Shown in pieces: positions 7,721 to 41,410 of a stretch of DNA of 64,000 nucleotides (position 1 is its first letter; each line of letters opens with the position of its first letter). The stretch spans positions 41,247 through 105,246 of the forward strand of contig CACAFZ010000002.1 of NCBI GenBank assembly GCA_902531885.1, written 5' to 3'. The position numbers were made by a program, and so were the translations under genes. Origin of the DNA: an uncultured Pelagibacteraceae bacterium. GTDB lineage: Bacteria > Pseudomonadota > Alphaproteobacteria > Pelagibacterales > Pelagibacteraceae. A model generated the notes under the pieces. The model saw only the letters and a program-made list of their open reading frames with translations. It was not told the origin of the DNA and searched no databases.

Positions 7721-7760
7721 CGGGGCGTAGCGCAGTCTGGTAGCGCATCTGGTTTGGGAC
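7721..7760 (+). pseudogene. attL: 5' half of tRNA-Pro(TGG), a 40 bp direct repeat of 17317-17356
   Basis: CGGGGCGTAGCGCAGTCTGGTAGCGCATCTGGTTTGGGAC is 39/40 identical to the start of the intact tRNA and diverges right after the anticodon loop; no T-arm or 3' acceptor strand follows. Confidence 0.95.
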
Positions 7761-7859
7761 TAGATGTATTTATTGTCCCAGGCGTTTCAATTAAACTATA
7801 TCTTTCAACACTAATAGAGCATATCAAAGCCTATTACATACATCAATAAAATAAGTTAA

Positions 7860-7880
7860 AGCCCCCATATGTCCCCCAAA
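7860..7880 (+). repeat. integrase arm-type site pair (left arm)
   Basis: AGCCCCCATATGTCCCCCAAA matches the paired GCCCCCAA repeats at 17134-17153 and 17210-17228. Confidence 0.7.
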
Positions 7881-7926
7881 TTCCCAGGTGTCAGTCAGGA
7901 ACCAAGCAATTACTGATCTTTGAATA

Positions 7927-7958
7927 TACCACGAAAGCCTTATTTTACGTGGTAAATT
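7927..7958. promoter_or_regulatory. operator-like inverted repeat TACCACG-N14-CGTGGTA(AATT)
   Basis: Same half-sites, 14 bp spacer and AATT flank as 14984-15015. Confidence 0.65.
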
Positions 7959-7989
7959 GCACATAAAAGACTCGTATAAGTTGAATAAA

Positions 7990-8020
7990 CGAGGCTCAGC
8001 CTACGGCTTCGCCTCGCTTT
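7990..8020 (+). other. GC-rich hairpin (terminator-like or origin hairpin)
   Basis: CGAGGC-TC-AGCC-TAC-GGCT-TC-GCCTCG followed by CTTT. Confidence 0.5.
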
Positions 8021-8289
8021 AGGAGCCACGTATAGCACGGTCAATCTCAATCCCGTGGTATTTACAAAAAAGATCCTAAATGCGTTTTAAACGTCGTTTT
8101 TAAGCGTTTAACCGATACACCTGAGCTGGTTTAACCTTTAGATTATATCCAGTTAAACTATCAATGATCCATAGACTTAGAGTACCTGAAAACTTATCAA
8201 CATTAAAAAAGTTTAGGTTCACAAGGTCAAAAAAATTTTATAAATTTTCAATTCGAAAGGAAAAAATTTTTTAAAAATTTCAAATCAAA

Positions 8290-8487
8290 ATGGGTTGGTA
8301 TAAACAACATAGCTCTTTTTCAGATCCACTCGATACACCAGTTGTTGATCGCTGCATAAATTGTGGCAATCACAAAGAGGTTAAAACTACAATGACAATG
8401 GAATTCGGGGAGGGCAACTATAACACTGGTCCAATCTGCAAAGATTGTTATTCAGCTAATCGTGGACCGAGGATAATTCAAGTTTAA
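8290..8487 (+). CDS. small zinc-finger protein (element)
   Basis: CINC...CKDC pairs; ends directly at a hairpin; the only + strand gene of the element. Confidence 0.6.
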   Translation: MGWYKQHSSFSDPLDTPVVDRCINCGNHKEVKTTMTMEFGEGNYNTGPICKDCYSANRGPRIIQV

Positions 8488-8525
8488 TTTTGCTCCCCAA
8501 ACAGGGCAGTCCGAGGAGCAAAAAA
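8488..8525. terminator. hairpin between convergent genes, likely terminator of the minus-strand transcript
   Basis: TTTTGCTCC (8488-8496) pairs with GGAGCAAAA (8515-8523). Confidence 0.5.
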
Positions 8526-8578
8526 CGTATTACTATTCAGACAAGGTGTGTATGAATAAGATAAACGTAATATACAAA

Positions 8579-9340
8579 TTATTTTCTATTTTTCAAACGC
8601 CAAATTTCCTCTTCAATTTTATTTTTAAATTCTGGTGGATCATTATCAGGCGTAAAGTTATTTGGATCTATCTCAACACTTTCTCTTTCTTCACGTTCAC
8701 TTTGTCCAAAGTTTCCAAAAAATAAACTATTGGATCTCGTTCCATGTTCAGATCTGTAATTATATAAATATGATTTTCTTTTGTGGTAATCATCATCAAC
8801 TTTCTGCAATCCTTTAGCATTTAACATAGATCCATATTTCGGGTTCACTCGATCTATGCCTACTGGTATGCCAGGACCAGGATCAACGTTTTTCTTTAGA
8901 GTTTCTTCGGCTGCCTTTAAGTTCTTTTCATCTAAATTTTTCTTTGCAATTTTAATGACTTCAGGTGTTATCTCATCAACAATTTTATCGCCTTTGTCAT
9001 ATCTAATCTTAGCAAGGTGTTTAACTAAATTATGTTCCTCTAATTGCCAACCGTTTCTAGCGTTATGGTAATTTGTTTTTAGTCCCTTGATTAATGCTCC
9101 TCGACGTCTGTATCGAGAGGCACGAAACGAGGAACCTGGACCTGGATTTTGACGGCTATCGCTACGGCTATTCACTATGAAAGGACGGTCTTTGAGAGGT
9201 GTTTTCCACCAAAATTTTTTATCGATTTCTTTAAAATTTCCATTTTCTAATCCACGTCTGCGTCTTGATCTCAACGCTTCGGGTTGAATACCAAGGATTG
9301 CAGCGTATTCACGGGAAGTTAATCTAAATTCATTATCCAT
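8579..9340 (-). CDS. hypothetical protein with N-terminal MerR/Xis/Nu1-like HTH (element)
   Basis: LTSREYAAILGIQPEALRSRRRRG HTH-like pattern; the rest is unrecognised. Confidence 0.7.
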   Translation of the reverse strand: MDNEFRLTSREYAAILGIQPEALRSRRRRGLENGNFKEIDKKFWWKTPLKDRPFIVNSRSDSRQNPGPGSSFRASRYRRRGALIKGLKTNYHNARNGWQLEEHNLVKHLAKIRYDKGDKIVDEITPEVIKIAKKNLDEKNLKAAEETLKKNVDPGPGIPVGIDRVNPKYGSMLNAKGLQKVDDDYHKRKSYLYNYRSEHGTRSNSLFFGNFGQSEREERESVEIDPNNFTPDNDPPEFKNKIEEEIWRLKNRK

Positions 9341-9348
9341 AATTCCGA

Positions 9349-9377
9349 GTAATAGATTACAAGAAACTAACGGTCAA
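9349..9377 (-). promoter_or_regulatory. sigma70-type promoter for the 253 aa gene
   Basis: TTGACC-17 bp-TATTAC on the minus strand, 8 nt before the ATG (probably leaderless). Confidence 0.5.
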
Positions 9378-9399
9378 GTTCGTACGGCTAACGAGGACG

Positions 9400-9807
9400 C
9401 TAATTTAATTTTTTCTTCGGAGCTTTTATTCTCACAAGAGGCATACGTCCTGAACCTCTTTTTTGATATTCTAATAGTCCAACTTTAGGATCTGAAAGTT
9501 CTTTTAATAATTTCCATTTAGTAGGTTGATGTAATCCAAACCAATTATATAAATTTTTATTATCGATATAGATCCATTTGTGGGAGGTATCTTTACCTTT
9601 AAACTCGGCTCTCGAACCATAAACCAGGCCTTGTTTAGTTCTGATATATTGAAACAATCTCACGGCACACAAACCATGATCGGCAAAAGCATTGAATTGA
9701 TAAATTGATAACGGTCCCATTATAAAATGTACGTCGCCCTCAAAACTTCCTTTGTATTTTTCCTCTTCAGCAGCAACAGAAATATTTTTTATATTATATA
9801 TAGTCAT
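9400..9807 (-). CDS. putative winged-helix DNA-binding protein (element)
   Basis: FGLHQPTKWKLLKELSDPKVGLLEYQKRGSGRMPLVRI resembles a recognition helix plus wing; directly follows the polymerase. Confidence 0.6.
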   Translation of the reverse strand: MTIYNIKNISVAAEEEKYKGSFEGDVHFIMGPLSIYQFNAFADHGLCAVRLFQYIRTKQGLVYGSRAEFKGKDTSHKWIYIDNKNLYNWFGLHQPTKWKLLKELSDPKVGLLEYQKRGSGRMPLVRIKAPKKKLN

Positions 9808-9836
9808 AATTACATTATTAAATATATAACCAGGGG

Positions 9837-11714
9837 CTAACCAACTTGTAGTACCTGGGCTGCGTAATCGTTAGTAGGTTGTTGATTTTCGTATTTTGTT
9901 ATCTCATCAAAGATCTCGTCAAAAAGTTCCTGGTGTTTAGGTTCTTGTTTCCAGTTTGATGTAATCTTTTCACTATCAACTCTAATCAAACCTCCGACAA
10001 CATCTTTAGCTGCTATTTCCATTAAACTAATAGCCTGATCTTTTTGCCATGTATCGGGGATCGGGATTTCAATTATCAAAGCGTCGTGCAGCAAGGCAAT
10101 AACTTTTATATGGTTATCTAATAATTTCTGAATAGCTTTTCTTAAAATATCTGCGCCAGTAGTTTGAATAATAAAATTTTTTAATTGATTGTTAATACTT
10201 TGACGTTTTCCGTCTTTCCATTTTTTATTTCCTTTAATCCAACGCTGCCAACCAAGTGAAGATCTTAAATGGCCCGTGATAGCTGAACCATTAATCCAGG
10301 TTTCTCTTTTATCAAAATAAATTTTATAAAGTTCTTTAAATCTTTTTAAATATCCCTTTGCAGTAAATTTAGAACAATCTAATCTTCGAGCAACTTCTTT
10401 AACTCCCATACCATATGAATTCGCTAAAAATAATTCTTTAACCACATCACGTTGAGTTGCGTGAGTTTCTTTTGTTGCGTTTGGATCATTAATCATACCC
10501 AGTTGTTGGGCCGTTGTTATGTATAGATCGTGTGTGTTGTAAGCCTCTAATAATCTATGGTCCCCTGAAAGGTGTCCCATGATCGCTGGTTCCTGGGCTT
10601 TGTAATCTAAATAATATAATTCAGTTCCCCAACCTGGTTTAATAAAATTTCTAACCCACTTACTTGCGTTCAATGGATATTTGGAAGAGGAGGGCGTACA
10701 TCTTGACGTAATTGTTCCAAACATATTTAGATCAGCACGTACACGTCCGTCGTGTCCAACCTTATAAAAACTTAGTTTAGTAGTATTAATTAATTTATTT
10801 AATTGTCTGAATTCTTTAATGAGAGGGTGTCTATGTTCAAACTTTTTAACAACATCATCATTTGCCGTGTAATGTCCACTCTTTAAAAGGGGCCAGGTTC
10901 TTCCTAATCCACATTTAATTATTAGCTGCTTAAACTTATCTCGATTAAATTTAAGATCATCTGTAAAAATATTTAATCTTTTATTTCTTTTTGTGATTAT
11001 TTTATCTTTAACTTTTACCCAGTTCTCATTGAACCTATTGATTAGATCTACATCAACGGGAATTCCGTATCTTTGTATTTGAGCTATATTCCCCTGAGTG
11101 TAGCCTCTAAAAGTAATTTCCCAAAGAGTTCTTTCAAAATCTTCTTCAGTAGTTAATTTATTTTTATCTTCAATGTCCTGGCACTGAGCTACAAATAATC
11201 TTTCAAGTTCTTCTACATCTGTTTGACAATAATCTAAAATGCGCTTTTGATCTTGTTTAGAGTAATCGAAAGGTAATTCTGAGTATTCATTTCTTCTTAA
11301 AATAAAATCTAACTCCTTATCCTTTTGATCCTGGGGGATAGTTTCAATGTTATACCTGGCGCAAGTGTCTAGTAATCCAGTTTTATTCTTTTCTAAGAAC
11401 GGACCATACATACATTTATTTTCAACAAAGCAATCAAACATATAAGGAGGTTTGCCTTGTAGTAATTGTAAAAAGGATCCGTGTTCTGCTACTGCATTAA
11501 AAGAGATTAATAAACAATTTGAATAATCGAAAAAGGGTGGGTGTAATTCTTTATCATCAACCCAGTATCTAAATATTTCTTTAGTGAAGATATCTTTGAA
11601 AACTACACAAAGAATTCTTTGGGGGATTGTCCCAGTTAAATCGGATAGATACTCGGTGTCCATGGCTAGGACTCTGGAAAACCCATTTTTGATATATTCT
11701 AAAAGTTTCATCAA
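9837..11714 (-). CDS. family A DNA polymerase (3'-5' exonuclease + polymerase, no 5' nuclease), element-encoded
   Basis: ExoI MDTEY, ExoIII YCQTDV, GTITSRCT, motif A LDYKAQEP, motif B RDVVKELFLANSYG, NFIIQTTGADI, motif C LHDAL. Confidence 0.95.
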   Translation of the reverse strand: MMKLLEYIKNGFSRVLAMDTEYLSDLTGTIPQRILCVVFKDIFTKEIFRYWVDDKELHPPFFDYSNCLLISFNAVAEHGSFLQLLQGKPPYMFDCFVENKCMYGPFLEKNKTGLLDTCARYNIETIPQDQKDKELDFILRRNEYSELPFDYSKQDQKRILDYCQTDVEELERLFVAQCQDIEDKNKLTTEEDFERTLWEITFRGYTQGNIAQIQRYGIPVDVDLINRFNENWVKVKDKIITKRNKRLNIFTDDLKFNRDKFKQLIIKCGLGRTWPLLKSGHYTANDDVVKKFEHRHPLIKEFRQLNKLINTTKLSFYKVGHDGRVRADLNMFGTITSRCTPSSSKYPLNASKWVRNFIKPGWGTELYYLDYKAQEPAIMGHLSGDHRLLEAYNTHDLYITTAQQLGMINDPNATKETHATQRDVVKELFLANSYGMGVKEVARRLDCSKFTAKGYLKRFKELYKIYFDKRETWINGSAITGHLRSSLGWQRWIKGNKKWKDGKRQSINNQLKNFIIQTTGADILRKAIQKLLDNHIKVIALLHDALIIEIPIPDTWQKDQAISLMEIAAKDVVGGLIRVDSEKITSNWKQEPKHQELFDEIFDEITKYENQQPTNDYAAQVLQVG

Positions 11715-12082
11715 TGTTCAGTTCCTCTTTTATCTTTCTTGTTCTTACTTTTTTTCTTCTCAACATATTTTATTTTTTCCTTTCCTTTCTTTTCTTCTAA
11801 GTATTTGCGCCAGTGTTTTATTTCCCCATTGGCACGTTTTTTCTTCATATACTCTCGCATATAAATTTTTCTATCTCTTACATAAATTCCTGCTGCTATC
11901 CATTTTTGATTTAATTTTAAATAACAATATTTCCAGTTTCCGATTTCATCTCTTACATCTAAATATTTGTCATATAAGAGTTCATTAATTTTCATTTCTT
12001 TTTTAATATTGAAATCCTGGATCTTGATTATTTTTTCTTGGATCGAGATTATCTTTTCCAGGTCCTTTATTATCTTTTGCAT
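11711..12082 (-). CDS. hypothetical basic/coiled-coil protein (element)
   Basis: 123 aa ORF with start/stop overlaps on both sides. Confidence 0.65.
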   Translation of the reverse strand: MQKIIKDLEKIISIQEKIIKIQDFNIKKEMKINELLYDKYLDVRDEIGNWKYCYLKLNQKWIAAGIYVRDRKIYMREYMKKKRANGEIKHWRKYLEEKKGKEKIKYVEKKKSKNKKDKRGTEH

Positions 12083-12507
12083 TAGTGAACCGTCGGACCT
12101 TTTAATTTCTTTTTAATATTTTCTACTTCTTCTTTTTCAAATTCACAAAACCATTTATAGGCTTTCGGATTTTGTTCATCTTTAAGAATACGACCACAAC
12201 AATCGCAACAAGTAATTCCAAAAAATTTAAAACAACCCTCATAAAAACTATTTAAATAAAACTTCTCATCAAAGGCGTGTTCTTGATCTTCTTGGTAAGC
12301 TCTAAAATCCATATATGCTTTTAATCTATAAGCACTTGGTAAAAATAGTTCCCACAAATCCTCAAAGGTTGGTTTGCCATTTTCTATGTTTTTCTCTCGG
12401 GCGTGTTTATATCTTTTTGATTTATTTAATTTTTTAATCCAATTTTTGTATTGTTTTTCATGGCCGTCGGGAACCCAACATAATTTGTGATTAACTATTT
12501 TCTTCAT
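12082..12507 (-). CDS. hypothetical protein with Cys cluster (element)
   Basis: 141 aa, CCDCCGR motif, ATGA overlap with the upstream ORF, GGGAGG Shine-Dalgarno. Confidence 0.7.
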   Translation of the reverse strand: MKKIVNHKLCWVPDGHEKQYKNWIKKLNKSKRYKHAREKNIENGKPTFEDLWELFLPSAYRLKAYMDFRAYQEDQEHAFDEKFYLNSFYEGCFKFFGITCCDCCGRILKDEQNPKAYKWFCEFEKEEVENIKKKLKGPTVH

Positions 12508-12725
12508 AGGTCCTCCCTACGAAAACCCAGGCTTTTATAGTATTTCCGATCGTCTTTGTCTTTTGGCTCTACAATAAAATCTATGTAATCGTCGCCCTGG
12601 TTATGTATTTTAACGTCATCAGGGAGCTGCCTAATCAATCTTTCCATAGAAATTAAACAAGAAAGCAAATCAATTTTTGTTTTACTATCGCCAAATATAT
12701 TTTTTCCTCTAATTGTTAAAATCAT
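12504..12725 (-). CDS. hypothetical protein (element)
   Basis: 73 aa ORF tightly packed in the operon. Confidence 0.6.
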   Translation of the reverse strand: MILTIRGKNIFGDSKTKIDLLSCLISMERLIRQLPDDVKIHNQGDDYIDFIVEPKDKDDRKYYKSLGFRREDL

Positions 12726-12726
12726 A

Positions 12727-13347
12727 TTATCCCCAGTTATTTAAAACTGCCTCGTGTTTAGCGTCCGTGATAATTCTATCTTCGAAAACTAATTCAATTA
12801 TTTCCTCAGTAGTCATTGTTGAGAATTCAGGTTCGATACTCAATCCAACACCTGGGGGCCTCGTAACAAATCCACGTTTGCCCTCCCAATTAATTTTGAT
12901 CCACTCTTTTTGTCCAAGCTCAACTGCTTTTCTAATCGACAAACCTTTCTTTGCAGCTTTGCCTCCCCATTTATAATTAACAAACCAAATACGTTCGACG
13001 CCCGTATCTGAAACGTAAGGAGCTATTACATATTCTTTGATCTTAAAATCACACATCATATTTACTTTTGAAAATGTTGTTGGATCTTGGATCTGTACTA
13101 CGTATTTAATATCTTCGCCGTCGGGATCTAATAATTTAACTCCGTGAACCTTTATACAATCTTCCCAGTTGTCGCCTCTAAATCTTACAAATTTATGTTG
13201 TGTAGGACTTTCTTCATCTATTTCTTGTCCACTAGCAACGGCGTCCTCCATTTCAAGAGATTGTTGTGTTGTTGTTTTAGCTTGATCGAAATCAAACTTT
13301 ATTTTTGACGGTACTGTTTTGATTTTATTTTGTGTTTCGTTATCCAT
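12727..13347 (-). CDS. hypothetical protein, candidate PolA accessory/ssDNA-binding protein (element)
   Basis: 206 aa, beta-rich and aromatic (RIWFV, KEWIKINW, EPEF, VFEDRII); in an operon with PolA; function is inference. Confidence 0.65.
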   Translation of the reverse strand: MDNETQNKIKTVPSKIKFDFDQAKTTTQQSLEMEDAVASGQEIDEESPTQHKFVRFRGDNWEDCIKVHGVKLLDPDGEDIKYVVQIQDPTTFSKVNMMCDFKIKEYVIAPYVSDTGVERIWFVNYKWGGKAAKKGLSIRKAVELGQKEWIKINWEGKRGFVTRPPGVGLSIEPEFSTMTTEEIIELVFEDRIITDAKHEAVLNNWG

Positions 13348-13375
13348 ATTTTTACCTTGTCTTATGAGTTAGCTT

Positions 13376-13486
13376 TTAAATAACTTCCTCCTTGATTATC
13401 CAATCTCTATTTTTATTTTGGATTACGTCCAACAATAGGTAAGGCTGATTGATTTTCCTTTTCTGTTGTTTCGTTAAATCGGTCAT
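13376..13486 (-). CDS. small hypothetical protein, 36 aa, not in ORF track (element)
   Basis: MTDLTKQQKRKINQPYLLLDVIQNKNRDWIIKEEVI; ATGA overlap with the upstream stop; GAGG Shine-Dalgarno. Confidence 0.5.
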   Translation of the reverse strand: MTDLTKQQKRKINQPYLLLDVIQNKNRDWIIKEEVI

Positions 13487-14319
13487 ATAGGCCTCTTCAA
13501 ATCTGATATTCCACCACGGCCCCATTTACGATCCCAGTCGTCTTGCTCTCGGGCCAATCTTTTATCTGCCAGGTCTTTTATTTTCAGGTCCAAGGGGATC
13601 TCAGGTTCTTTAGGTTCTTCTTTGACGGTTAATATACTTGTATCAATAACTGGAACCGTAAATTTAGGATATTCAGGTTCCTTATACTTACCAATAAATT
13701 TAAGATCTGATTTATCTAAATATTTTGTTCCGTTTTTATAATATTCACGATTTAATATTTTTTTAATCTCATTACGTTCTTCAGGGGTGTCAGCAGCTTG
13801 TTTTAATAGTTGCCATGTATCAGGACCACCAGTCATCTGTCTGCTACGTTCTAATCTTTCAGCTAAAGCCCCAACTTGTTCAGGTGTAGCTCTTTCAGGA
13901 TATTTTGGTTTATTAATATTATTTTTTAGAATAGGGGCGTTAGAAACTTTAGGATATCCAGGCTCTTTCTTTTGTGAGTTTTCAATACCAAATTCTTTTA
14001 ATTTTTTTAGATAAGGATCATTGTTTCTTTGTAGAATATTTTTATTGCGTCCTAGTTTAGTAAGTTTTTTATCTTCTTCTGCTATGGCTTTATCATAGTC
14101 TTTTCCTAGATTAACTCCGTCGTATTTCTCAGTATAGTGTTTAATTCTTCTAAGAATATTTGGATCTTTGTTTGCGTCCTCATCACTTTTAAAATCAAAC
14201 TCTAATTGTTTCGGATTATAATTTTCAACAGTTTTATCGGTAAGTGTTTTCTTATTTTCATAACCAGGATTAGTTATTAAATCAGGGGTACCTCCGTTAT
14301 ATCTTAAACTATATTTCAT
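13483..14319 (-). CDS. hypothetical protein, charged/low complexity (element)
   Basis: 278 aa ORF coupled to the upstream gene. Confidence 0.7.
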   Translation of the reverse strand: MKYSLRYNGGTPDLITNPGYENKKTLTDKTVENYNPKQLEFDFKSDEDANKDPNILRRIKHYTEKYDGVNLGKDYDKAIAEEDKKLTKLGRNKNILQRNNDPYLKKLKEFGIENSQKKEPGYPKVSNAPILKNNINKPKYPERATPEQVGALAERLERSRQMTGGPDTWQLLKQAADTPEERNEIKKILNREYYKNGTKYLDKSDLKFIGKYKEPEYPKFTVPVIDTSILTVKEEPKEPEIPLDLKIKDLADKRLAREQDDWDRKWGRGGISDLKRPI

Positions 14320-14720
14320 TACTTTTTAGGATTTAAAGATTTGTTGAGGATCCATTTAAGCGTATCTCTTTCGCTTTGAGATAAATCTATTAATCTTCTA
14401 CCCAGGTCAAAGTAGTCGGAAAGATTAATTGTTTTAACTCCTTTAGGTTTTTTATAATCAGAAAATTTAATTACTTTTCCACCCGAGGATAATGTAATCC
14501 TAATTATTTCTTCTCTTGGTGTACGTTTAAACCAACTATCAAAAGTTTCGCCAGGTTCACGCTGCTTTAACCATGCGTCTTGCAGCAATTCTAATCTCTC
14601 ATTTAAAGCGTCGAATTCATATTTTTCTGCGTCTGCTATTTCAATAACTTCTTTTAAATCTATTCTTGGTGTATTAGCTCCACCACTTGTCATACGTTTT
14701 TCTACATTAGATATTTTCAT
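14319..14720 (-). CDS. hypothetical protein (element)
   Basis: 133 aa, ATGA overlap with the Xis-like gene. Confidence 0.7.
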   Translation of the reverse strand: MKISNVEKRMTSGGANTPRIDLKEVIEIADAEKYEFDALNERLELLQDAWLKQREPGETFDSWFKRTPREEIIRITLSSGGKVIKFSDYKKPKGVKTINLSDYFDLGRRLIDLSQSERDTLKWILNKSLNPKK

Positions 14721-14911
14721 TTGTTGCTAATCCTTTTATCTGTTTCCCAAAGATCGTATAAAATTTTTCCGTGATTTTTATGCCAAACTTCATTTGTATC
14801 TTTACCAAGTAGGGATCTTCTTCTTCGCAAAGTTGAGGGTTTAACTTTTAAATGTTCAGCAGCTTCTTTTTCATCTGCCCAACGTTCATTATTAAAATCT
14901 TTTTTATTCAT
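14717..14911 (-). CDS. excisionase/AlpA-like HTH protein (element)
   Basis: WADEKEAAEHLKVKPSTLRRRR...GKILYD fits HTH_17/Xis; the start is likely ATG 14911 rather than 14989. Confidence 0.75.
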   Translation of the reverse strand: MNKKDFNNERWADEKEAAEHLKVKPSTLRRRRSLLGKDTNEVWHKNHGKILYDLWETDKRISNK

Positions 14912-14954
14912 ATAAACTTTTTTATCTTTATTTAAATCGATTTCAAAGATTATC

Positions 14955-15015
14955 AATGACACGGAAAAAACGTGGTACAAAATTACCACGGAACCTATAT
15001 TTGGCGTGGTAAATT
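14955..15015. promoter_or_regulatory. cluster of operator-like boxes upstream of the xis-polA operon
   Basis: AATGACACGGA-N5-CGTGGTAC (14955-14978) followed by TACCACG-N14-CGTGGTAAATT (14984-15015). Confidence 0.7.
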
Positions 15016-15667
15016 ATTTTTTAAGGATTTTTTGACAGATAGCTTTAAATTCTTTTGCTTTGAACCTAAACTCTTCTTTTATCCATCTATTATATTCTGA
15101 TTTCTTTTCTTCTAATACTCTTCTACGTTTCTCAATTATTTGTTCGCAAATTTTATCGTGTTCGTGTTCATAAAAACTTTTTCTTTGTACTAACTTTTTA
15201 TTTATTTGAGTTTTACTTGGACTGACTTTCGTGAAATCAACTCCATGCAGCGAACAACAAATTTTAAAATTTTCATTTACAATGGTTCTCGGACCTTTAT
15301 CTTTATTATTTTTTATATTCATTTGGTCCTCGATAAATTTAACTAAATAAAATCTTTGTTTATCTTTTTCTTTGAAAGGTCTGTTTGTATTGGCAACCAA
15401 AACGTCCATAGCGTCCTGGGCTGTGTCATACATACTTTTCGCATAGTGTCCCAGGTTATTCCAAGTATAAATAATTCGATCTTGATAAAATAGATCAGCC
15501 AGTTCTTCTTGGACGTTCTTATAAAATTTTTTAGGATCACTGGTTCCCCATAAATCTAATCCACCAGTAATTTTTTCTGCTTCTTTCAGCGTCATCTTCT
15601 TTGACGCCTTTCTTCGTTTTTGACTGCCCATAGCCCAGGTATATCGGACCATGGACAGATTTACCAC
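15014..15667 (-). CDS. hypothetical protein downstream of integrase (element)
   Basis: 217 aa ORF; the true start may be a later Met. Confidence 0.7.
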   Translation of the reverse strand: MVNLSMVRYTWAMGSQKRRKASKKMTLKEAEKITGGLDLWGTSDPKKFYKNVQEELADLFYQDRIIYTWNNLGHYAKSMYDTAQDAMDVLVANTNRPFKEKDKQRFYLVKFIEDQMNIKNNKDKGPRTIVNENFKICCSLHGVDFTKVSPSKTQINKKLVQRKSFYEHEHDKICEQIIEKRRRVLEEKKSEYNRWIKEEFRFKAKEFKAICQKILKK

Positions 15668-15675
15668 GAAAACAT

Positions 15676-17058
15676 TTAGGCAACGTGTGATCTTCTTTTT
15701 GCAATTTGATTTATTCTTTGACGTTTAATCTCATCTGAAACTTTTATATATTTTTCAATGGATTTGTGATCTCGCCAACCTCCTAACTCCTGGATAGCTT
15801 TACTGTCCCCAGTTATTCCATATCCAATAGTTGCCCAGGTATGTCTAAGAAAATGAATACATTTAAAAGGCAACTTCGCTAATTTAATTATAGTAGCGTG
15901 AGTTTTACGTGGATCTCTAATATGCAAAGTTTTTATTTTGGTTATTTTATTTTTCTTTCTATTTTTTAGAACCTTGAAACGAGTAGGGAACACATACTTA
16001 AATCTTTTATCTCTATGATTTATTGTTCGTCTGTGTTTTGCCATTATTCTTAAAATAGCTCTAAATCTATAATCAAAAAACAATGTCATTGGTTCATCAT
16101 TTTTTGTGTCCTGGTAATAGATTTTATTACTATCGAAATTAATTTGGTCCCACATCAAACTAAATACCTGGTTCTTTGATCTTGCTCCAAGTAATCTAGC
16201 AGCACGTAACGAGAAACACGGAACAAGGTACTTTTCCCGATCTTGTCTAATTAACTTTAAACTAGCTTTTCTGTATCGTTTAAGTTCAGATTCAGTGTAA
16301 GGAGCCTCACGGTCCAATCTTCCTTTTTCCTTAAAGAGTTCTTTCTTTTTAAAATATGCAACTCTCTTTTTGAGTATTGCCGTTTCTTCAGCATATTCCT
16401 CAACGGATTGTATAACCTCAATAACTCTATTTGATTGATACTTACTCCATTTCATAATGGCTCTATGGAATTGTAAATAATCATCTTTTGTGAGATCAAT
16501 CATAGGCTTATTCACAATGTCCATAAAAGGCATTTTGTATAAAGACTTATGACCTGGGTTCTTGCTTTTCTGTTTAATATAAACATTAAACAAGCTCAGA
16601 TAATTCTCATAGGACTTTAAACTTTTAGCTCTATTCTCAATCCATATTTCAGCAACATCACAAAGACTTTTTCCTTTTGATCTTCTTGCAACAATCACAT
16701 TTGGATCTTCATTTCTTAGGATCTTAGCTTTCATTTCTTCAGCCATTTTACGTGCGACTGCTGGTGTTATTCCAACAAGATCTTTTTCTTTCGGATCGTT
16801 TTTGTCATACCAACGACCAAGAGTTTTATTTATTTTTTCAAAATAATTTCCTTTCTCATCTTTTCCTTTTGGTCTGTATCTGAAAATAAATGATCTTTGT
16901 CCTCCAGGACTAACTCTAGCTCTAAAGCCCATTAAATTTTTATCTTTAATGATCTTTTCCTTGTAGTAGTTTCCTTTCGGAATAGGTTTAAGCAGCGCCA
17001 TGATTTGATTATCAATTCGCACTCTTCCGTCATCATCAAGTTTTATTTCTTTTTTCAT
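15676..17058 (-). CDS. int: tyrosine integrase with N-terminal arm-binding domain (P4-like architecture)
   Basis: N-terminal GFRARVSPGGQRSFIFRYR..TLGRW; catalytic GARS (R), DTKND (K), HFLRH, LGGW and KYI (Y). Confidence 0.93.
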   Translation of the reverse strand: MKKEIKLDDDGRVRIDNQIMALLKPIPKGNYYKEKIIKDKNLMGFRARVSPGGQRSFIFRYRPKGKDEKGNYFEKINKTLGRWYDKNDPKEKDLVGITPAVARKMAEEMKAKILRNEDPNVIVARRSKGKSLCDVAEIWIENRAKSLKSYENYLSLFNVYIKQKSKNPGHKSLYKMPFMDIVNKPMIDLTKDDYLQFHRAIMKWSKYQSNRVIEVIQSVEEYAEETAILKKRVAYFKKKELFKEKGRLDREAPYTESELKRYRKASLKLIRQDREKYLVPCFSLRAARLLGARSKNQVFSLMWDQINFDSNKIYYQDTKNDEPMTLFFDYRFRAILRIMAKHRRTINHRDKRFKYVFPTRFKVLKNRKKNKITKIKTLHIRDPRKTHATIIKLAKLPFKCIHFLRHTWATIGYGITGDSKAIQELGGWRDHKSIEKYIKVSDEIKRQRINQIAKRRSHVA

Positions 17059-17104
17059 TTTCTTCTTTCTTCCTTTCTTATTTAGTTTTTGTTTTTAGAA
17101 AGTA

Positions 17105-17128
17105 AATGACACGGATCTTTCGTGGTAC
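17105..17128. promoter_or_regulatory. operator-like box upstream of integrase
   Basis: AATGACACGGA-TCTTT-CGTGGTAC, identical to 14955-14978 except for the 5 bp spacer. Confidence 0.7.
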
Positions 17129-17132
17129 GCAT

Positions 17133-17241
17133 AGCCCCCAACGTAGCCCCCAAACAAATCTACATAGTAAATTTAAGCGTGATTTATCAGGGTTATAAAA
17201 TTGATCGCAGCCCCCAATCTGCCCCCAAAGAGATCTACATA
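17133..17241 (+). repeat. integrase arm-type sites (two pairs) in attR
   Basis: GCCCCCAA at 17134, 17146, 17210 and 17221; both pairs are followed by ATCTACATA. Confidence 0.75.
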
Positions 17242-17279
17242 TGTTTATAAATTGTTTCATTTTCTTTCTCTTTCTTTAG

Positions 17280-17308
17280 TTGAAAAGATAAGTGTTTATG
17301 CGTATAAC
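17280..17308 (+). promoter_or_regulatory. element-supplied sigma70 promoter for the reconstituted tRNA-Pro
   Basis: TTGAAA (17280-17285), 17 bp spacer, TATAAC (17303-17308), 8 nt before the tRNA. Confidence 0.75.
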
Positions 17309-17316
17309 CAAGGCCT

Positions 17317-17393
<77 letters not shown>

Positions 17394-23940: not shown

Positions 23941-24689
23941 TTTATTTAAAATTTATATCTAGACTAATTAGGTTTCTTAAATCTTTATTAACAAAAACAC
24001 AACTATCTAATCATAAATTTCAAAATAAAAATCAAGTAACTAATGCCAATATTATACTTAACCTTTTAAAAAATAAAAATTTTTTACCTAATTATATTGT
24101 TGATGTTGGATGTGGTTATGGAGAATGGACTAAAAAATTATTAAATATATTTCCTATGTCTAATTTTTATCTTTACGATGCAGATAAAAATAATTTTGAA
24201 AAACTAGATCTTTTAAAAGAAAATAATAAAAATGTTCACTTTAAAATATGTTTATTATCAGATGATAATAGACCTTATAAGTTTTATAATATGGGATATG
24301 GTTCATCAATTTTTGAAGAACAAACTACACATAATAGAGATATTGAAGAAATATCATCTACTACATTAAACCAAGAACTTCCTGATGAATTAAAAAATCA
24401 AAATAATAATTTAATCAAATTAGATGTGCAAGGATCTGAATTAAAAGTGCTAGAAGGTTTAAAAGATACCATTAATTCTTTCGAAGTTATTATTTTAGAG
24501 GTTTCTATACATAACTATAATAAAGATTCACCACTATTTGATAAAGTAATGAATTATATGGTCGAAAAAAACTATAGATTGTATGATTTGTTTGATTTAA
24601 AACGTTTAGGTAACAATAATTCTTTTCTTGTTCAATTTGATTGTGTGTTTGTAAGAAATAATTCTGAACTTTTTAAAGTTAAATTTTAA
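23937..24689 (+). CDS. FkbM family methyltransferase
   Basis: VDVGCGYG and IKLDVQGSELKVLEG motifs. Confidence 0.9.
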   Translation: MIYLKFISRLIRFLKSLLTKTQLSNHKFQNKNQVTNANIILNLLKNKNFLPNYIVDVGCGYGEWTKKLLNIFPMSNFYLYDADKNNFEKLDLLKENNKNVHFKICLLSDDNRPYKFYNMGYGSSIFEEQTTHNRDIEEISSTTLNQELPDELKNQNNNLIKLDVQGSELKVLEGLKDTINSFEVIILEVSIHNYNKDSPLFDKVMNYMVEKNYRLYDLFDLKRLGNNNSFLVQFDCVFVRNNSELFKVKF

Positions 24690-25632
24690 TTTTATTTAAA
24701 GCATTATTTTTAAATATATTTGCTTCTCTTATATATCTTCTAACCATTTGTGTTGTTTTGTGACCTGTCATTGCCATAATACTTCTTTCATCAGCTCCTG
24801 ATTCCGCGGCAACTGTTGCAAAACCTGATCTTAAGCTATGTCCTGAATAATTTTTATTTTCTATACCTGCTAGATTCAAGTAATCTTTAATTATTAAAAC
24901 TACTGATTGATCTGTTAATCTATTGTTTGTTAATACTGAACCTTTTGCAAATCGTCTAAAAATTGGACCAGATTTTATATTTGATAACTCTATCCATTTT
25001 TTTAGGTTAATTACTGGACAATATTTTTCATTTGTGAAGTAGGGTAGGCCTTTTATCATTCCTTCACCAAATTGATCTGTTTTTGACTTTTTTATAGTTA
25101 TTTTAACACCCTCTGGAACGAATTCTAAGTCTTCATGATCAATTGATATTAATTCAGTTCTTCTAAATCCGCCTCCAAAACCAACTAATAAAATTGTTTT
25201 GTCTCTAATTTTTTTTATTTCTTCTACTTTTTGATCATCAATAACATTAATAATTGATTTTAAATGATTGATTAATATAGGTTTTTTTCCTTTTTGAATG
25301 CTTCCTTTAACCCTTTTTATACCCATTAAATTTTCTATAATTATTGGATGTTTAGTATCTAGATAATGACCTTTAAGTCTATGAATCATACTTATTGACA
25401 CTAATCTTCTTCTTAAAGTACTGATTTTTGAGTTTTTTGATAGATACGTGAGGTAAAGAGATACTATTTTAGGTTCAGTTGGTAGGGAATCAAAACCATG
25501 CTTTGCGCAAAAAGCCCCAAAATCTCTAAAATCTGACTTGTAAGCTCTTAAAGTGTTATTAGCCTTAGAACTTTTGAGGTTATTTAATGTTTCCTCATGA
25601 AGTGATTTTAGGTCTGTAACAAGTTCATTCAT
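24679..25632 (-). CDS. Cre-like tyrosine recombinase
   Basis: SAM-like N-domain (ANNTLRAYKSD); intact catalytic set GFRRTEL, SKTDQ, GHSLRSG, TGH and RRY; no arm-binding domain. Confidence 0.92.
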   Translation of the reverse strand: MNELVTDLKSLHEETLNNLKSSKANNTLRAYKSDFRDFGAFCAKHGFDSLPTEPKIVSLYLTYLSKNSKISTLRRRLVSISMIHRLKGHYLDTKHPIIIENLMGIKRVKGSIQKGKKPILINHLKSIINVIDDQKVEEIKKIRDKTILLVGFGGGFRRTELISIDHEDLEFVPEGVKITIKKSKTDQFGEGMIKGLPYFTNEKYCPVINLKKWIELSNIKSGPIFRRFAKGSVLTNNRLTDQSVVLIIKDYLNLAGIENKNYSGHSLRSGFATVAAESGADERSIMAMTGHKTTQMVRRYIREANIFKNNALNKIKI

Positions 25633-25635
25633 ATA

Positions 25636-25670
25636 ATTACTATTGATAACAATTAATTATCATTAGTAAT
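25636..25670. repeat. loxP/dif-like palindrome: 14 bp arms with a 7 bp spacer
   Basis: ATTACTATTGATAA-CAATTAA-TTATCATTAGTAAT; arms match 13/14; 3 bp upstream of the recombinase ATG. Confidence 0.75.
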
Positions 25671-25716
25671 ATAATAACGCATTTTTAAAGTCAAGGAAAT
25701 AATATAAAATAATTAA

Positions 25717-25881
25717 ATGCCAAAATATGCTTTAATTGGATTAATTGTAGTAATAACAACATTTGTAATAATAAATTATTGGTCAAAATTAAAAGAAAAA
25801 ACGAGAAACAAAATAATTGCATCAATATTTGGAATAATTGCAATAGGATTTGTAGTACTCATAGCATTATTAATATATTAA
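25717..25881 (+). CDS. small two-TM membrane protein, 54 aa, not in ORF track
   Basis: MPKYALIGLIVVITTFVIINYWSKLKEKTRNKIIASIFGIIAIGFVVLIALLIY. Confidence 0.65.
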   Translation: MPKYALIGLIVVITTFVIINYWSKLKEKTRNKIIASIFGIIAIGFVVLIALLIY

Positions 25882-25944: not shown

Positions 25945-26160
25945 ACAACCAGATAGTTCTGATATTGTAAAAATGAATTAAGGGGCAACCCTTAACTGGC
26001 CGATTGGGGAAAAGCCGAGAGGTTCAAGCCCAGGGGGCAGAAAGCTCTACAAAGCAGCGCTAAACATGTAGAGCGGAAGGCATGGCGGTAGCGCATTAAA
26101 CGACGTGCCAAAACTACTGTTCTTTGTGCCGTAAAAAGCACAAGGAAACAGGGTTTTTCT
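25945..26160 (+). ncRNA. structured ncRNA of unassigned class; ends approximate
   Basis: GC-rich island with at least five hairpins, GCAA and GAGA tetraloops on the + strand, complementary loops GCGCTA/TAGCGC, and a final stem followed by a T-run. Confidence 0.8.
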
Positions 26161-28611: not shown

Positions 28612-29904
28612 TTAACTAAATAAACGGATTAAAGTTGGTTTCTTCTTAATATTTCTATTTTTTTTAAAAATATTTAAACAATTCTTTGCATTTTTTTCTG
28701 AAGTTTTATGTGTAATAATTACAATAGTTGCTATTTTATTAATATTAGCAGGAGTTTGGATAATTCTTTTAACAGAAATTTTATTTTTTGCTAATTTACG
28801 AGTGAGTTCAGATAAAACTCCTGGTTTATCTTTAACTTCAAATCTTAGATAAAGTGAATTTGTATAATTATTTACATCATAACTATTTATTTTATTTCTA
28901 GCTTTACTTGGAATACCAAAAGGATATTTAATATTTCCTCTTAAAATTGATAATAAGTCTGACATTAATGCTGATGATGTTGGTCCAGGCCCTGCCCCTT
29001 CACCTTGCATAACTGTTTCTCCTACTGGTTTACTGTTAAGTATAACAGCATTCATTACACCATCAATGTTTCCAAGATATGTATCTTTTCCTACCAAACA
29101 TGGATGTACACGTTCAAATAATTTATTATTTATAATTTCCGTAATACCTAAAAGTTTAATTTTGAAGTTTAATTGTTTCGCTATTTGAATATCCTTTAAG
29201 TCAATATTTTCAATACCTTCCATTAAGCAATTTGAATTAGAAATTTTTTTATTAAATGCAAGGGATGATAGTATTCTAATTTTAGCTAAGGCATCATGGC
29301 CATTTAAATCTAATTTTGGATTAACAGGTTCGGCATATCCAAGTTTTTGCGCTTTTTTTAAAACAGCACTTAGAGTTTCTTTTGATCTTTCCATTTCTGT
29401 TAAGATGTAGTTTGATGTTCCATTCAATATACCTACAACTTTATTAAATTTATTAGTTGCTAATCCATCTTTTAAAGCTCTTAATATAGGTATGCCGCCA
29501 GCAACTGATGCTTCAAATTCTAAATTAACTTTATTTTTTTCAGCTAAATAAGATAAATAGTCACCGTGTTTTGCAATTAAAGCTTTATTTGGTGTAATAA
29601 CACTAATTTTTTTTTTAAGAGCGGCTATTACAATTTTTTTTGAAATGCCTCCAGATAAACCAACGGCTTCTATCAAGATATCAATTTTTAATTTTTTTAT
29701 TATTTCAAGGGGATTTTTGTAAAATATTTTTTTATTTATTTTATACTTTCTTTTTTTATTTATATTTTTTGCTGAAATTGCGTTTATTATTATTTTTTTT
29801 CCAGTTTTAATTTCAATGTTTTTTTTTTTTATATTAATTTCATTTAATAAATAGCCTCCTATTTGACCCAATCCTACAATAGCTATGTTAATTCGATTAT
29901 TCAT
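28612..29904 (-). CDS. hom: homoserine dehydrogenase
   Basis: GLGQIG, FEASVAGGIP, GILNGTSNYIL, GAGPGPT; C-terminal ACT domain. Confidence 0.96.
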   Translation of the reverse strand: MNNRINIAIVGLGQIGGYLLNEINIKKKNIEIKTGKKIIINAISAKNINKKRKYKINKKIFYKNPLEIIKKLKIDILIEAVGLSGGISKKIVIAALKKKISVITPNKALIAKHGDYLSYLAEKNKVNLEFEASVAGGIPILRALKDGLATNKFNKVVGILNGTSNYILTEMERSKETLSAVLKKAQKLGYAEPVNPKLDLNGHDALAKIRILSSLAFNKKISNSNCLMEGIENIDLKDIQIAKQLNFKIKLLGITEIINNKLFERVHPCLVGKDTYLGNIDGVMNAVILNSKPVGETVMQGEGAGPGPTSSALMSDLLSILRGNIKYPFGIPSKARNKINSYDVNNYTNSLYLRFEVKDKPGVLSELTRKLAKNKISVKRIIQTPANINKIATIVIITHKTSEKNAKNCLNIFKKNRNIKKKPTLIRLFS

Positions 29905-32011: not shown

Positions 32012-32152
32012 GACTGCGGGATTAATACTTATAAATATATATATTGTCAATTAATTGGTGTATTAAAATGTTATAAAAAACGCATAATATAAAGGTATTT
32101 TCCACTTGCTAATTAATCTAAATTCATAATAAAATTAGTTTGTTGAGATATA

Positions 32153-32210
32153 TTAAGGCATTGAACTATATTGAGTGCCATACATAAAGTTAAAACACTA
32201 AAAAAGGAGA
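32153..32210 (+). ncRNA. SAM-V riboswitch
   Basis: AGGCATTGAACTATATTGAGTGCCATACATAAAGTTAAAACACTAAAAAAGGAG fits the SAM-V pattern and ends in the RBS of a methionine-pathway gene. Confidence 0.85.
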
Positions 32211-32216
32211 AGATAA

Positions 32217-33536
32217 ATGAGTAAAAACCCAGAAACAATAGCGTTACACGGAGGTGAGTACAGAAGTGATCCGGCTACTACAGCGGTAGCAGTTCCAATT
32301 TATAGAACTACCTCATATCAGTTTAATAATACAGGACATGCAGCAAATTTATTTGCATTAAAAGAATTTGGAAACATCTATACAAGGATCATGAATCCAA
32401 CAAATGATGTTTTGGAAAAAAGAGTGGCCGCACTTGAGGGAGGATTGGCATGTGTTACCGTAGGATCGGGTCAAGCTGCCTCAACATTTGCAATTGTTAA
32501 TTGCTGCCAAGCTGGAGATAATTTTGTTAGTTCTACAGATTTGTATGGTGGAACAGTAAATTTATTTACACATACTCTAAAAAAACTTGGAATAGAAGTG
32601 AGATATGCTGATCCATCTGATCCAAAAAACTTCGAAAAAGCAATAGATGAAAAAACTAGATGTTTTTATGCTGAAACACTACCTAATCCCTATTTGAGAG
32701 TTTTTCCAATTAAAGAAGTTTCTGATATAGGAAGAAAACATAATATTCCTTTAATAATGGATAACACTGCATCTCCAATAATTTGTAAACCTATAGAACA
32801 TGGTGCTGCTGTAGTAGTACACTCTTTAACGAAATTTATTGGTGGTCATGGTACAGTCATTGGAGGTTGTTTAGTAGATGGTGGTAATTTTGATTGGACT
32901 GCAGATCCAAAAAGGCAACCTTTGTTTAATGAACCAGATATGAGTTATGGTGGAGCTAAGTGGGGAGAGGTTGTTCCTCAATTAACAGGTGCTAATGTAG
33001 CATTTGCTGTAAGAGCAAGAGTATGTTTATTAAGAGATCTTGGGGCACCTCTTGCACCAGATAATGCATGGGGTATTATCCAAGGTTTAGAGACAGCGCC
33101 TCTTAGAATGAAACAACACTGTTCAAATGCAGAAAAGGTAGTTGCTTATCTTCAAAAAAATAAAAATGTTGATAGAGTAATTTATCCTACTCTGCATCAA
33201 GGTGAAATTGCTGCTAGATCTAAAAAATATTTTAAAGGTGGTAATGGAGCATTAGTAGGTATTGAGGTTAAAGGAGGAGTTGAAGCTGGTAAAAAATTTA
33301 TTGAGGCATTAAAAATGTTTTACCATGTTGCAAATATAGGAGATGCTAGAAGTTTAGCAATTCATCCGGCTACTACTACTCATAGCCAACTTACAGAAGA
33401 GGAATTGCTAGCAGCAGGTGTTACACCTGGTTATGTGAGGCTATCTATTGGTATAGAGCATCCAGATGATATAATTGCTGATTTAGATCAAGCTTTGACG
33501 GCATCAGGAAAACCAAATCTTAAGGCTGTTGGTTAA
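32217..33536 (+). CDS. metY: O-acetylhomoserine aminocarboxypropyltransferase/sulfhydrylase
   Basis: IYTRIMNPT, HSLTKFIGGHG (PLP Lys), ANIGDARSLAIHPATTTHSQL. Confidence 0.95.
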   Translation: MSKNPETIALHGGEYRSDPATTAVAVPIYRTTSYQFNNTGHAANLFALKEFGNIYTRIMNPTNDVLEKRVAALEGGLACVTVGSGQAASTFAIVNCCQAGDNFVSSTDLYGGTVNLFTHTLKKLGIEVRYADPSDPKNFEKAIDEKTRCFYAETLPNPYLRVFPIKEVSDIGRKHNIPLIMDNTASPIICKPIEHGAAVVVHSLTKFIGGHGTVIGGCLVDGGNFDWTADPKRQPLFNEPDMSYGGAKWGEVVPQLTGANVAFAVRARVCLLRDLGAPLAPDNAWGIIQGLETAPLRMKQHCSNAEKVVAYLQKNKNVDRVIYPTLHQGEIAARSKKYFKGGNGALVGIEVKGGVEAGKKFIEALKMFYHVANIGDARSLAIHPATTTHSQLTEEELLAAGVTPGYVRLSIGIEHPDDIIADLDQALTASGKPNLKAVG

Positions 33537-41013: not shown

Positions 41014-41410
41014 TAGAATTTCTTATTTTCTTAGATATTTTATCTAGTAAAGCATTTAAGTATCTAGTCTGTCCTTCATTAATAAAAAAATTTGATGCTT
41101 TTAGGTATTCATTTATAATTATTTTTGAAGATATTTTTGGTTTATATAAAAATTCAAATATTGCACTTTTAACTATTATTTGAAAAACTTTATCTAGTTT
41201 TTTTAAATCAAGATCCAAATTAAGGTGATTGGATATTTCATCATTAATTACATCATCCCTTTCAATAGTTCCATTTACCACATCTTTAATAAATTTTTTA
41301 AACCTATGCTTTGGGAAAGTTAAATTTTCATCATAATTAAAATACTTTCCATAAAGTTTTTGTATTACTATAACTCTCGGGTTATTTTTTGGACTGTATT
41401 GTAGAGTCAT
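41006..41410 (-). CDS. nusB: transcription antitermination factor NusB
   Basis: IIINEY and NALLDK motifs; ribH-nusB-thiL synteny. Confidence 0.88.
   Translation of the reverse strand: MTLQYSPKNNPRVIVIQKLYGKYFNYDENLTFPKHRFKKFIKDVVNGTIERDDVINDEISNHLNLDLDLKKLDKVFQIIVKSAIFEFLYKPKISSKIIINEYLKASNFFINEGQTRYLNALLDKISKKIRNSNG

Follow-up and report, generated by a model that had tools for sequence, protein, structure and literature searches.

The 64,000-nucleotide stretch of DNA analysed here (the window; positions 41,247 to 105,246 of contig CACAFZ010000002.1, assembly GCA_902531885.1) comes from an uncultured bacterium of the Pelagibacteraceae (SAR11) and carries, on its minus strand, a tyrosine recombinase gene preceded by a short palindrome. 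Gene and palindrome are considered here as a candidate chromosome-dimer resolution system, in which one enzyme and one site would do the work of XerC, XerD and dif. The features of the locus are as follows.

24679..25632, minus strand: tyrosine recombinase of 317 residues with a Cre-like predicted fold and no arm domain (from the open reading frame, Pfam, a homologue alignment and the predicted structure)
25636..25670, no strand assigned: palindromic site, the proposed dif equivalent (arms 25636–25649 and 25657–25670, asymmetric 7-bp spacer 25650–25656)
25666..25694, minus strand: predicted recombinase promoter (-35 box TTGACT at 25689–25694, -10 candidate overlapping the outer end of the site)

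The open reading frame (ORF) is intact, and the original prediction of a Cre-type recombinase without an arm domain holds in this respect: in the 317-residue protein Pfam detects PF00589 together with a weak N-terminal domain of the SAM-like kind, and no arm-binding domain. The catalytic set consists of R157, K184, H265, R268, H291 and Y300. All are invariant in 49 aligned homologues except H291, which is kept in at least 90% of them, and the residues line up with the set listed for Cre in PMC10250229, with a histidine at the position of Cre W315. The AlphaFold model of the protein has a mean pLDDT (predicted local distance difference test) of 90.9; a structure search with it returns Cre structures first, at template modelling (TM) scores of 0.73–0.81, and the predicted fold is nearer to Cre than to XerH (0.52–0.60). 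With this fold, no arm domain and the R-K-H-R-H/W-Y set, the SAR11 enzyme would be classed as Cre-type. The Cre-like label therefore fits the predicted fold, whereas in sequence the protein is nearer to Cre/TnpS-like resolvases of plasmids (up to 43% identity), which are annotated as 'site-specific integrases' and are its best relatives outside the family, than to P1 Cre (22%). Within the family the recombinases are 50–88% identical, marine and freshwater members included. At one freshwater locus (L383, Ca. Fonsibacter) the gene is broken by a stop codon or frameshift behind an intact site of the second type described below, which reflects either an assembly error or real decay.

The palindrome is as originally described: its 14-bp arms at 25636–25670 are complementary at 13 of 14 positions, flank a 7-bp spacer and end 3 bp from the ATG. 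Its rarity was discarded as evidence because the same 875-kb assembly (28% GC) contains 17 comparable matches, some of them overlapping (14-bp arms, at most one mismatch, 6–8-bp spacer). The palindrome by itself is thus not beyond chance, and its significance rests on its conservation. It stands ahead of the recombinase gene in 51 of 51 Pelagibacteraceae loci, with an invariant GATAA-N7-TTATC core and a nearly invariant spacer. The core pattern was found in 53 of 60 genomes, in a single copy in 52 of them, and the reversed control in none; one genome (G170) has a site with a variant spacer. On the whole chromosome of genome G023 there is no second site with these arms above 20 bits. A repeated palindrome of GATAA/TTATC units at G000:C1:93692-93726 has a structure unlike that of the recombinase site and resembles a Fur-type box.

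Site and enzyme occur as two alleles. Type A, which includes the window (37 loci), has the 14-bp arms of the window site together with Q242 and a loop at residues 226–237 of the enzyme, and type B (14 loci) has TTCC...GGAA arms, a lysine at position 242 and no loop. Arm type covaries with Q242 or K and with the 12-residue loop without exception in these loci, and all 60 further type B proteins that could be parsed by pattern, out of 119, have the lysine and lack the loop. Both arms switch together between the alleles, as expected if one protein reads both. Because the two types occur side by side within several genera, and a quick gene tree rejects the monophyly of genera g1, g5 and g12, the alleles are exchanged at one locus. 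A type B site is followed by the recombinase in all 119 named genome loci with enough flanking sequence. Of the 80 named records listed with a type B site, 78 have titles of the Pelagibacter group, and the other two are low-GC contigs in metagenome-assembled genomes (MAGs) labelled otherwise, where the recombinase is present too. The SAR11-type gene and site on low-GC contigs of MAGs labelled Actinomycetota and Methylobacillus (L369, L377) are probably due to binning contamination.

The site also overlaps the predicted promoter of the recombinase gene. In each of 36 type A loci a TTGAC box lies 33 nucleotides ahead of the core, and in each of 14 type B loci this distance is 32–34 nucleotides; the fixed distance in type A places the -10 box on the outer arm. 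A simple promoter scan of the minus strand did not call this promoter, so the call rests on conservation. The earlier idea of autorepression fits a TTGAC box whose predicted -10 element overlaps the arm: a bound enzyme would cover its own -10 box and transcription start, and in this way would hold down the transcription of its gene and remain at a low level.

Distribution in the family and the absence of XerC/XerD

Far from being patchily distributed, the gene is core in the Pelagibacteraceae. It is present in 153 of 200 genomes of the family and in 66 of the 73 that are at least 90% complete (both counts include the unpublished genome G068). When 45 near-complete genomes were searched with PF00589, it was the sole match in 23 of the 39 that carry it.

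The family lacks recognisable XerC and XerD. None of 230 Pelagibacteraceae genomes matches the XerD model at E ≤ 1e-30, whereas all 20 genomes of the sister family f184 do, 18 of them twice, with scores just under the curated cut-off. An orthologue of the recombinase gene was not found in these 20 genomes (best E 1.9e-9, at XerC/D-like loci of f184). The canonical dif pattern, in a search with a high background, gives a clean dif-like best match in three of three f184 genomes and no match with an intact core at one mismatch in G023. The absence of XerC, XerD and a canonical dif, which the original prediction had asked about, is thus upheld for the two proteins across the family and for dif, with that background, in G023. 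Since f184 has XerC/D without this gene and the Pelagibacteraceae the reverse, the two systems are mutually exclusive within the order. The SAR11 pair is not a variant of the classical one: the window enzyme scores 75 and 61 bits against the models of the two paralogues XerC and XerD, with cut-offs of about 330, and its site has a 14-7-14 layout in place of the 11-6-11 layout of the 28-bp dif (PMC2731167).

In the available part of PMC2731167, which dates from 2009, P. ubique is listed without a dif/Xer system, and the supplements of PMC3025954 (Kono 2011) hold no Pelagibacter entry. Literature searches directed at SAR11, which covered few subscription papers, returned no published description of the module.

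Position relative to the replication terminus

In Alphaproteobacteria gidA is linked to the origin. With gidA as the zero point, 28 of the 29 single-contig genomes whose length is known place the recombinase gene at 0.454–0.538 of the circle; G197 and G045, which have no exact length, were not counted. On the G023 chromosome the cumulative GC-skew maximum (673,575) and the switch in gene orientation (673,703) both fall beside the site (674,662), which is 1.1 kb from the maximum. The skew switch that the original prediction expected near 25.6 kb is therefore found at the site in complete relatives and not on the window's own contig, whose raw peak is at window position 3,686. An integrated element (described below) moves the peak there, and window-level skew was discarded as evidence for the terminus. 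Converging transcription was likewise confirmed in part: genes on the right are mostly on the minus strand up to about 55.8 kb, whereas the left side is mixed, with plus-strand genes at 0.1–5.4 kb and 17.3–24.7 kb and minus-strand genes, including the integrated element, at 5.4–17.1 kb. Fourfold-site skew was rejected as an independent locator of the terminus because it is weak and broad in G023, and neither DnaA boxes nor shorter motifs resembling FtsK-orienting polar sequences (KOPS) show a useful polarity in that genome.

Of 160 KOPS octamers in ten genomes, 141 point toward the site, and of 122 copies of the reversed motif 76 do; where the distance to the site is at most 15% of the chromosome, 54 of 57 octamers and 20 of 30 reversed copies have this orientation. 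In a further five genomes the count is 65 of 74, and in G023 it is 10 of 12. The best switch interval includes the site in nine of the ten genomes, although in two it is one of several tied intervals, and in G037 it narrows to 5 kb (1,012,048–1,017,420). The expected reversal of KOPS polarity is thus present in complete relatives. The window's contig has two such octamers.

28990..28997, minus strand: KOPS-type octamer pointing toward the site
8407–8414, plus strand: the second KOPS-type octamer of the contig, inside the integrated element and likewise directed toward the site

FtsK with its gamma domain, the partner expected of a terminal site on which KOPS converge, is encoded in four of four complete genomes tested.

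A putative one-enzyme dimer resolution system and its rivals

We consider it highly probable that the recombinase and its palindrome form the chromosome-dimer resolution system of the Pelagibacteraceae, and that a domesticated plasmid-type Cre-like resolvase has replaced XerC/XerD-dif in this family. Comparative genomics supports the single Cre-like enzyme with its site in the role originally suggested, and none of three findings that would have spoken against it (XerC/D with dif elsewhere in the genome, a distant skew switch, a patchy gene) came true. In the proposed mechanism, one monomer would bind each arm of the site. After a crossover has fused the sister chromosomes, FtsK would follow KOPS at the septum until the sites of both sisters meet in a simple synapse. 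A homotetramer would then carry out a two-step strand exchange over the 7-bp core, with a Holliday junction as intermediate, to give monomers. Such a mechanism is feasible, since Cre/loxP put in place of dif resolves dimers in E. coli without activation by FtsK and needs KOPS-guided translocation, as described in the available part of PMC2680272. By analogy, FtsK would somewhat more probably position the SAR11 sites than activate the enzyme.

The system would work like a single-recombinase Xer system and lies outside the XerC/D, XerS and XerH families. XerS/difSL of streptococci and lactococci, XerH/difH of Campylobacter and Helicobacter and XerL/dif of Legionellales likewise use one recombinase and, as far as the accessible text of PMC2731167 and PMC9765430 describes them, a palindromic low-GC site at the terminus, which adjoins its own gene in the case of XerS and XerH. 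XerL, compared by description only, shares two further traits in the portion of its description at hand: it is found in a group listed without dif/Xer, and its site is mimicked by a mobile element. The SAR11 pair has the make-up of this class, namely one core recombinase, a single-copy palindrome at the terminus and no XerC/D. The families are distinct, however: the enzyme reaches 42–75 bits against the XerS, XerC, XerD and XerA models, whose cut-offs are 220–335 (XerS, 41.9 against 267), and its match to XerH is distant in sequence (E 3.7e-4) as well as in structure (by the TM scores given above). The SAR11 site differs from those of the single-recombinase Xer systems in its loxP-like arms, its 7-bp core and the overlap with its own predicted promoter, and two specificity alleles circulate.

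The likeness to Cre/loxP lies in the best structural match, the aligned catalytic residues and the site directly upstream of the gene; compared by eye with the 13-bp repeat of the P1 record, the arms of type B and of the plasmid relatives agree in as many as 10 positions. Read in the loxP register, the SAR11 spacer has 9 bp instead of 8, and the predicted overlap 7 bp instead of 6, so that the site is 13+9+13 or 14+7+14 where loxP has 13-bp inverted repeats and an 8-bp spacer (PMC10250229). Cre is a phage gene, whereas the SAR11 recombinase is a core chromosomal one. In short, the enzyme is Cre-like in its predicted fold and not canonical in its spacer. The main text of PMC10250229, a collection of about 500 recombinase–site pairs, does not include Pelagibacter, and its 8-bp spacer filter would miss the SAR11 site. 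In the tyrosine-recombinase classification of 10.1101/542381, of which part was available, the threshold excluded Cre-like proteins.

The nearest relatives of the enzyme outside the family are encoded on plasmids. At E ≤ 1e-20 it matches 1,505 plasmid records, and at E ≤ 1e-25 it matches 19 of 397 genomes of the class outside the family; a general homologue search returned only near-identical SAR11-type proteins. A phage origin was tried and rejected, since the 16 phage records that match are all at most 28% identical. In a quick tree without XerC/D outgroups, 35 SAR11 sequences form one clade among the plasmid-type relatives (SH-aLRT, Shimodaira–Hasegawa-like approximate likelihood ratio test, 99). 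These relatives have sites of the same kind: a GATAA-N-TTATC palindrome is present at 14 of 26 loci, mostly with type B arms, and ten of the 14 palindromes have a 7-bp spacer, each a different one, whereas 6, 7 or 8 bp separate the GATAA cores among the relatives as a whole. Many carry TCCGATAA-N7-TTATCGG beside the gene. On the Alicyclobacillus plasmid pAACI01 (L139, 1533–3382), a related site, an AbrB-PIN toxin-antitoxin pair and a related recombinase follow one another in a compact plasmid-stability module. No functional study of the plasmid relatives was found in the literature.

The same clade takes in the resolvase of Tn4651 on pWW0. The pWW0 gene that we take to be TnpS, annotated in its record only as a site-specific integrase, encodes 323 residues, is divergent from a 332-residue gene and is 28% identical to the SAR11 enzyme (E 4e-38). 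The SAR11 locus lacks the remaining parts of such an element: TnpT has no match at E ≤ 0.01 in G023 or G000, no transposase is among the neighbouring ORFs of the window recombinase, and the divergent ORF of the window encodes only 54 residues, in contrast to the divergent tnpT, intervening rst and Tn3-family context of TnpS/TnpT/rst (described in the available parts of PMC7157771 and PMC4337579). A GATAA-N5-9-TTATC core is absent from the tnpT-tnpS region of pWW0, the one TnpS element checked.

A number of observations weigh against dimer resolution, or limit the evidence for it. The gene was not found in seven of the 73 good-quality genomes. Six of the seven were examined and are drafts of 20–70 contigs in which the site is also missing and no intact PF00589 is present, so that assembly gaps are the likely cause and true loss of the gene a less likely one. 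A 2026 preprint (10.64898/2026.10.07.757358), in the part available, reports XerC and XerD, by automatic annotation, as the only recombinases shared by 15 Arctic Pelagibacter genomes. Two named Uisw records each have one full-length PF00589 gene, which is the recombinase described here; one of them was excluded from the preprint's study, and the other may be among its 15. The covariation of arms and enzyme reflects few independent switches, which makes it suggestive and not statistical. With respect to the terminus, the gene of G087 lies 0.10 of the circle from gidA. Compared with G023, large blocks of this genome are out of order, by misassembly or by true rearrangement, and the jump falls next to other integrase genes. 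In G023 the raw GC skew largely follows the orientation of the genes, and after correction for gene strand the fourfold-site skews make a broad turn with extremes at 759 and 791 kb, 85–115 kb from the site. The best KOPS switch interval of G173 misses the site, only 8 of 13 KOPS fit in G036, and, as the genomes are kin, pooled KOPS counts overstate their independence. FtsK was not found in the window's 71%-complete assembly, and the support for dimer resolution comes from comparative genomics. As a separate observation on G087, its origin-linked region is joined to its terminus region across two other integrase genes (G087:C1, about 525–610 kb), and its replichores would be very unequal if the arrangement is real.

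Three other explanations were weighed. The palindrome might be no more than an autoregulatory operator, with the enzyme acting elsewhere or having another job and the terminal position inherited with the surrounding genes. The site does cover the predicted -10 box, end 3 bp before the ATG and keep a fixed distance from the TTGAC box, and the locus is syntenic (ogt lies upstream in 30 of 50 loci and glycosyltransferase-like genes lie downstream), so its position could be inherited. An operator would not need a nearly invariant asymmetric spacer, however, and the G023 chromosome offers no other evident target; nor would it account for the turn in KOPS polarity that several genomes, G037 among them, show no more than a few kb from the site, or for the mutual exclusion of this gene and XerC/D between two families. 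We regard this explanation as very unlikely. Slightly less likely still is a role in DNA capture or exchange instead of dimer resolution, with the site as an integration hotspot for phages or gene cassettes next to a variable glycosyltransferase region. Variable surface-glycan genes do flank the gene, its closest relatives are plasmid-borne, and viral contigs with the site and the host spacer exist. On the other hand, two real copies of the site around an insert were seen in none of 60 genomes, 63 metagenome loci contain no host–phage junction, no hybrid-arm site was found, and the cultured phages examined have the arms with another spacer; the terminal position and the exclusion of XerC/D would be left unexplained.

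The least probable of the three holds the gene to be a leftover of a plasmid or transposon resolvase, fixed and self-regulating but at present without a function for the chromosome. Its relatives are indeed resolvases of mobile elements, the putative TnpS among them, and the tree in which genera g1, g5 and g12 are not monophyletic points to exchange between lineages. That exchange, however, swaps one allele for the other at the same locus, TnpT is missing from both genomes searched, and the gene has stayed intact across a streamlined family of marine and freshwater members at the identities given above.

If the pair does resolve chromosome dimers, the dif/Xer function was not lost in SAR11, which the available part of PMC2731167 cites as free-living and too streamlined to keep it, but passed to a self-limiting module of a single gene, and this would be nature's counterpart of the engineered Cre/loxP-at-dif experiment. 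The site would mark the terminus precisely in a lineage with weak skew, and might serve as a neutral integration site in a group without genetic tools. The enzyme and its site, a pair open to direct tests, exist naturally in two specificities and have a core of odd length, and would thus also be useful for recombinase engineering.

Site copies in pelagiphages and the window neighbourhood

The 17-bp core of the site is present in 34 IMG/VR contigs, compared with 16 for the reversed control, so about half of the viral matches are expected by chance and only the 20 with extended arms were relied on. None of the 34 has the recombinase gene within 1.5 kb of the site, and the three contigs inspected have portal- and terminase-like ORFs. 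Metagenome loci with a type B site and the host spacer number 63: the recombinase follows downstream in 38, another 23 are phage-like, one is host-like on one side and one is unclassified. None shows a host–phage junction, and two scans, of metagenomes and of genome contigs, found no site with hybrid arms. A phage-like loose end was not seen in reads among 24 of 336 rows from four metagenomes, a sample that is not decisive.

Nine cultured pelagiphages carry an arm pair just upstream of their terminase genes. The pair beats the best of 15 shuffles in eight of the nine, including five of the six that were picked by flanking sequence and not by the site itself; in four, A-like and B-like sites stand in tandem, and none of the nine phages has a spacer like that of the host. 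P1 uses its own Cre to circularise or resolve its genome. A tentative idea, which we hold to be rather less than probable, is that abundant phages exploit the domesticated resolvase of their host through arm pairs with private spacers beside the terminase genes, to circularise or resolve their genomes or to titrate the enzyme; the resulting pressure would keep the two alleles swapping between genera, and the phages would answer with tandem sites. In carrying copies of a host site without a recombinase, the pelagiphages resemble integrative mobile elements exploiting Xer (IMEX), such as LME-1 of Legionella. They differ in being tailed phages, mostly from a group described as strictly lytic in the available text of PMC8477408, in their non-matching and often tandem A and B sites in culture, and in that no integration was seen. 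That text describes integrase-less HTVC010P-type phages as strictly lytic and, as far as it goes, does not mention Xer. The phage copies point to a possible unnoticed host dependency of such phages.

The window contains several further features, among them three ORFs.

15676–17058, minus strand: arm-type tyrosine integrase of the integrated element
9837–11714, minus strand: family A DNA polymerase of the element
25717..25881, plus strand: divergent hydrophobic ORF of 54 residues, without a Pfam match and not TnpT

The integrated element, which the earlier note did not mention, occupies 9.6 kb of the minus strand (7721–17356) in the 5' end of a tRNA-Pro(TGG) gene. It is bounded by a direct repeat identical at 39 of 40 bp (7721–7760 and 17317–17356), several of its ORFs (six were tested) have no Pfam match, and no structural gene is evident; it looks like a phage satellite or a small integrative element. 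The 54-residue ORF is probably a neighbour outside the recombinase system. Upstream of the ogt-like gene, at 25971–26111, there is an IMES-2 RNA (Rfam RF02035, 159 bits), which is separated from the site by 300 bp. The very AT-rich intergenic segment 26720–26870 has several imperfect inverted repeats that are probably compositional, and a SAM-V riboswitch at 32147–32212 precedes an O-acetylhomoserine sulfhydrylase-like gene (32217–33536, named by inspection).

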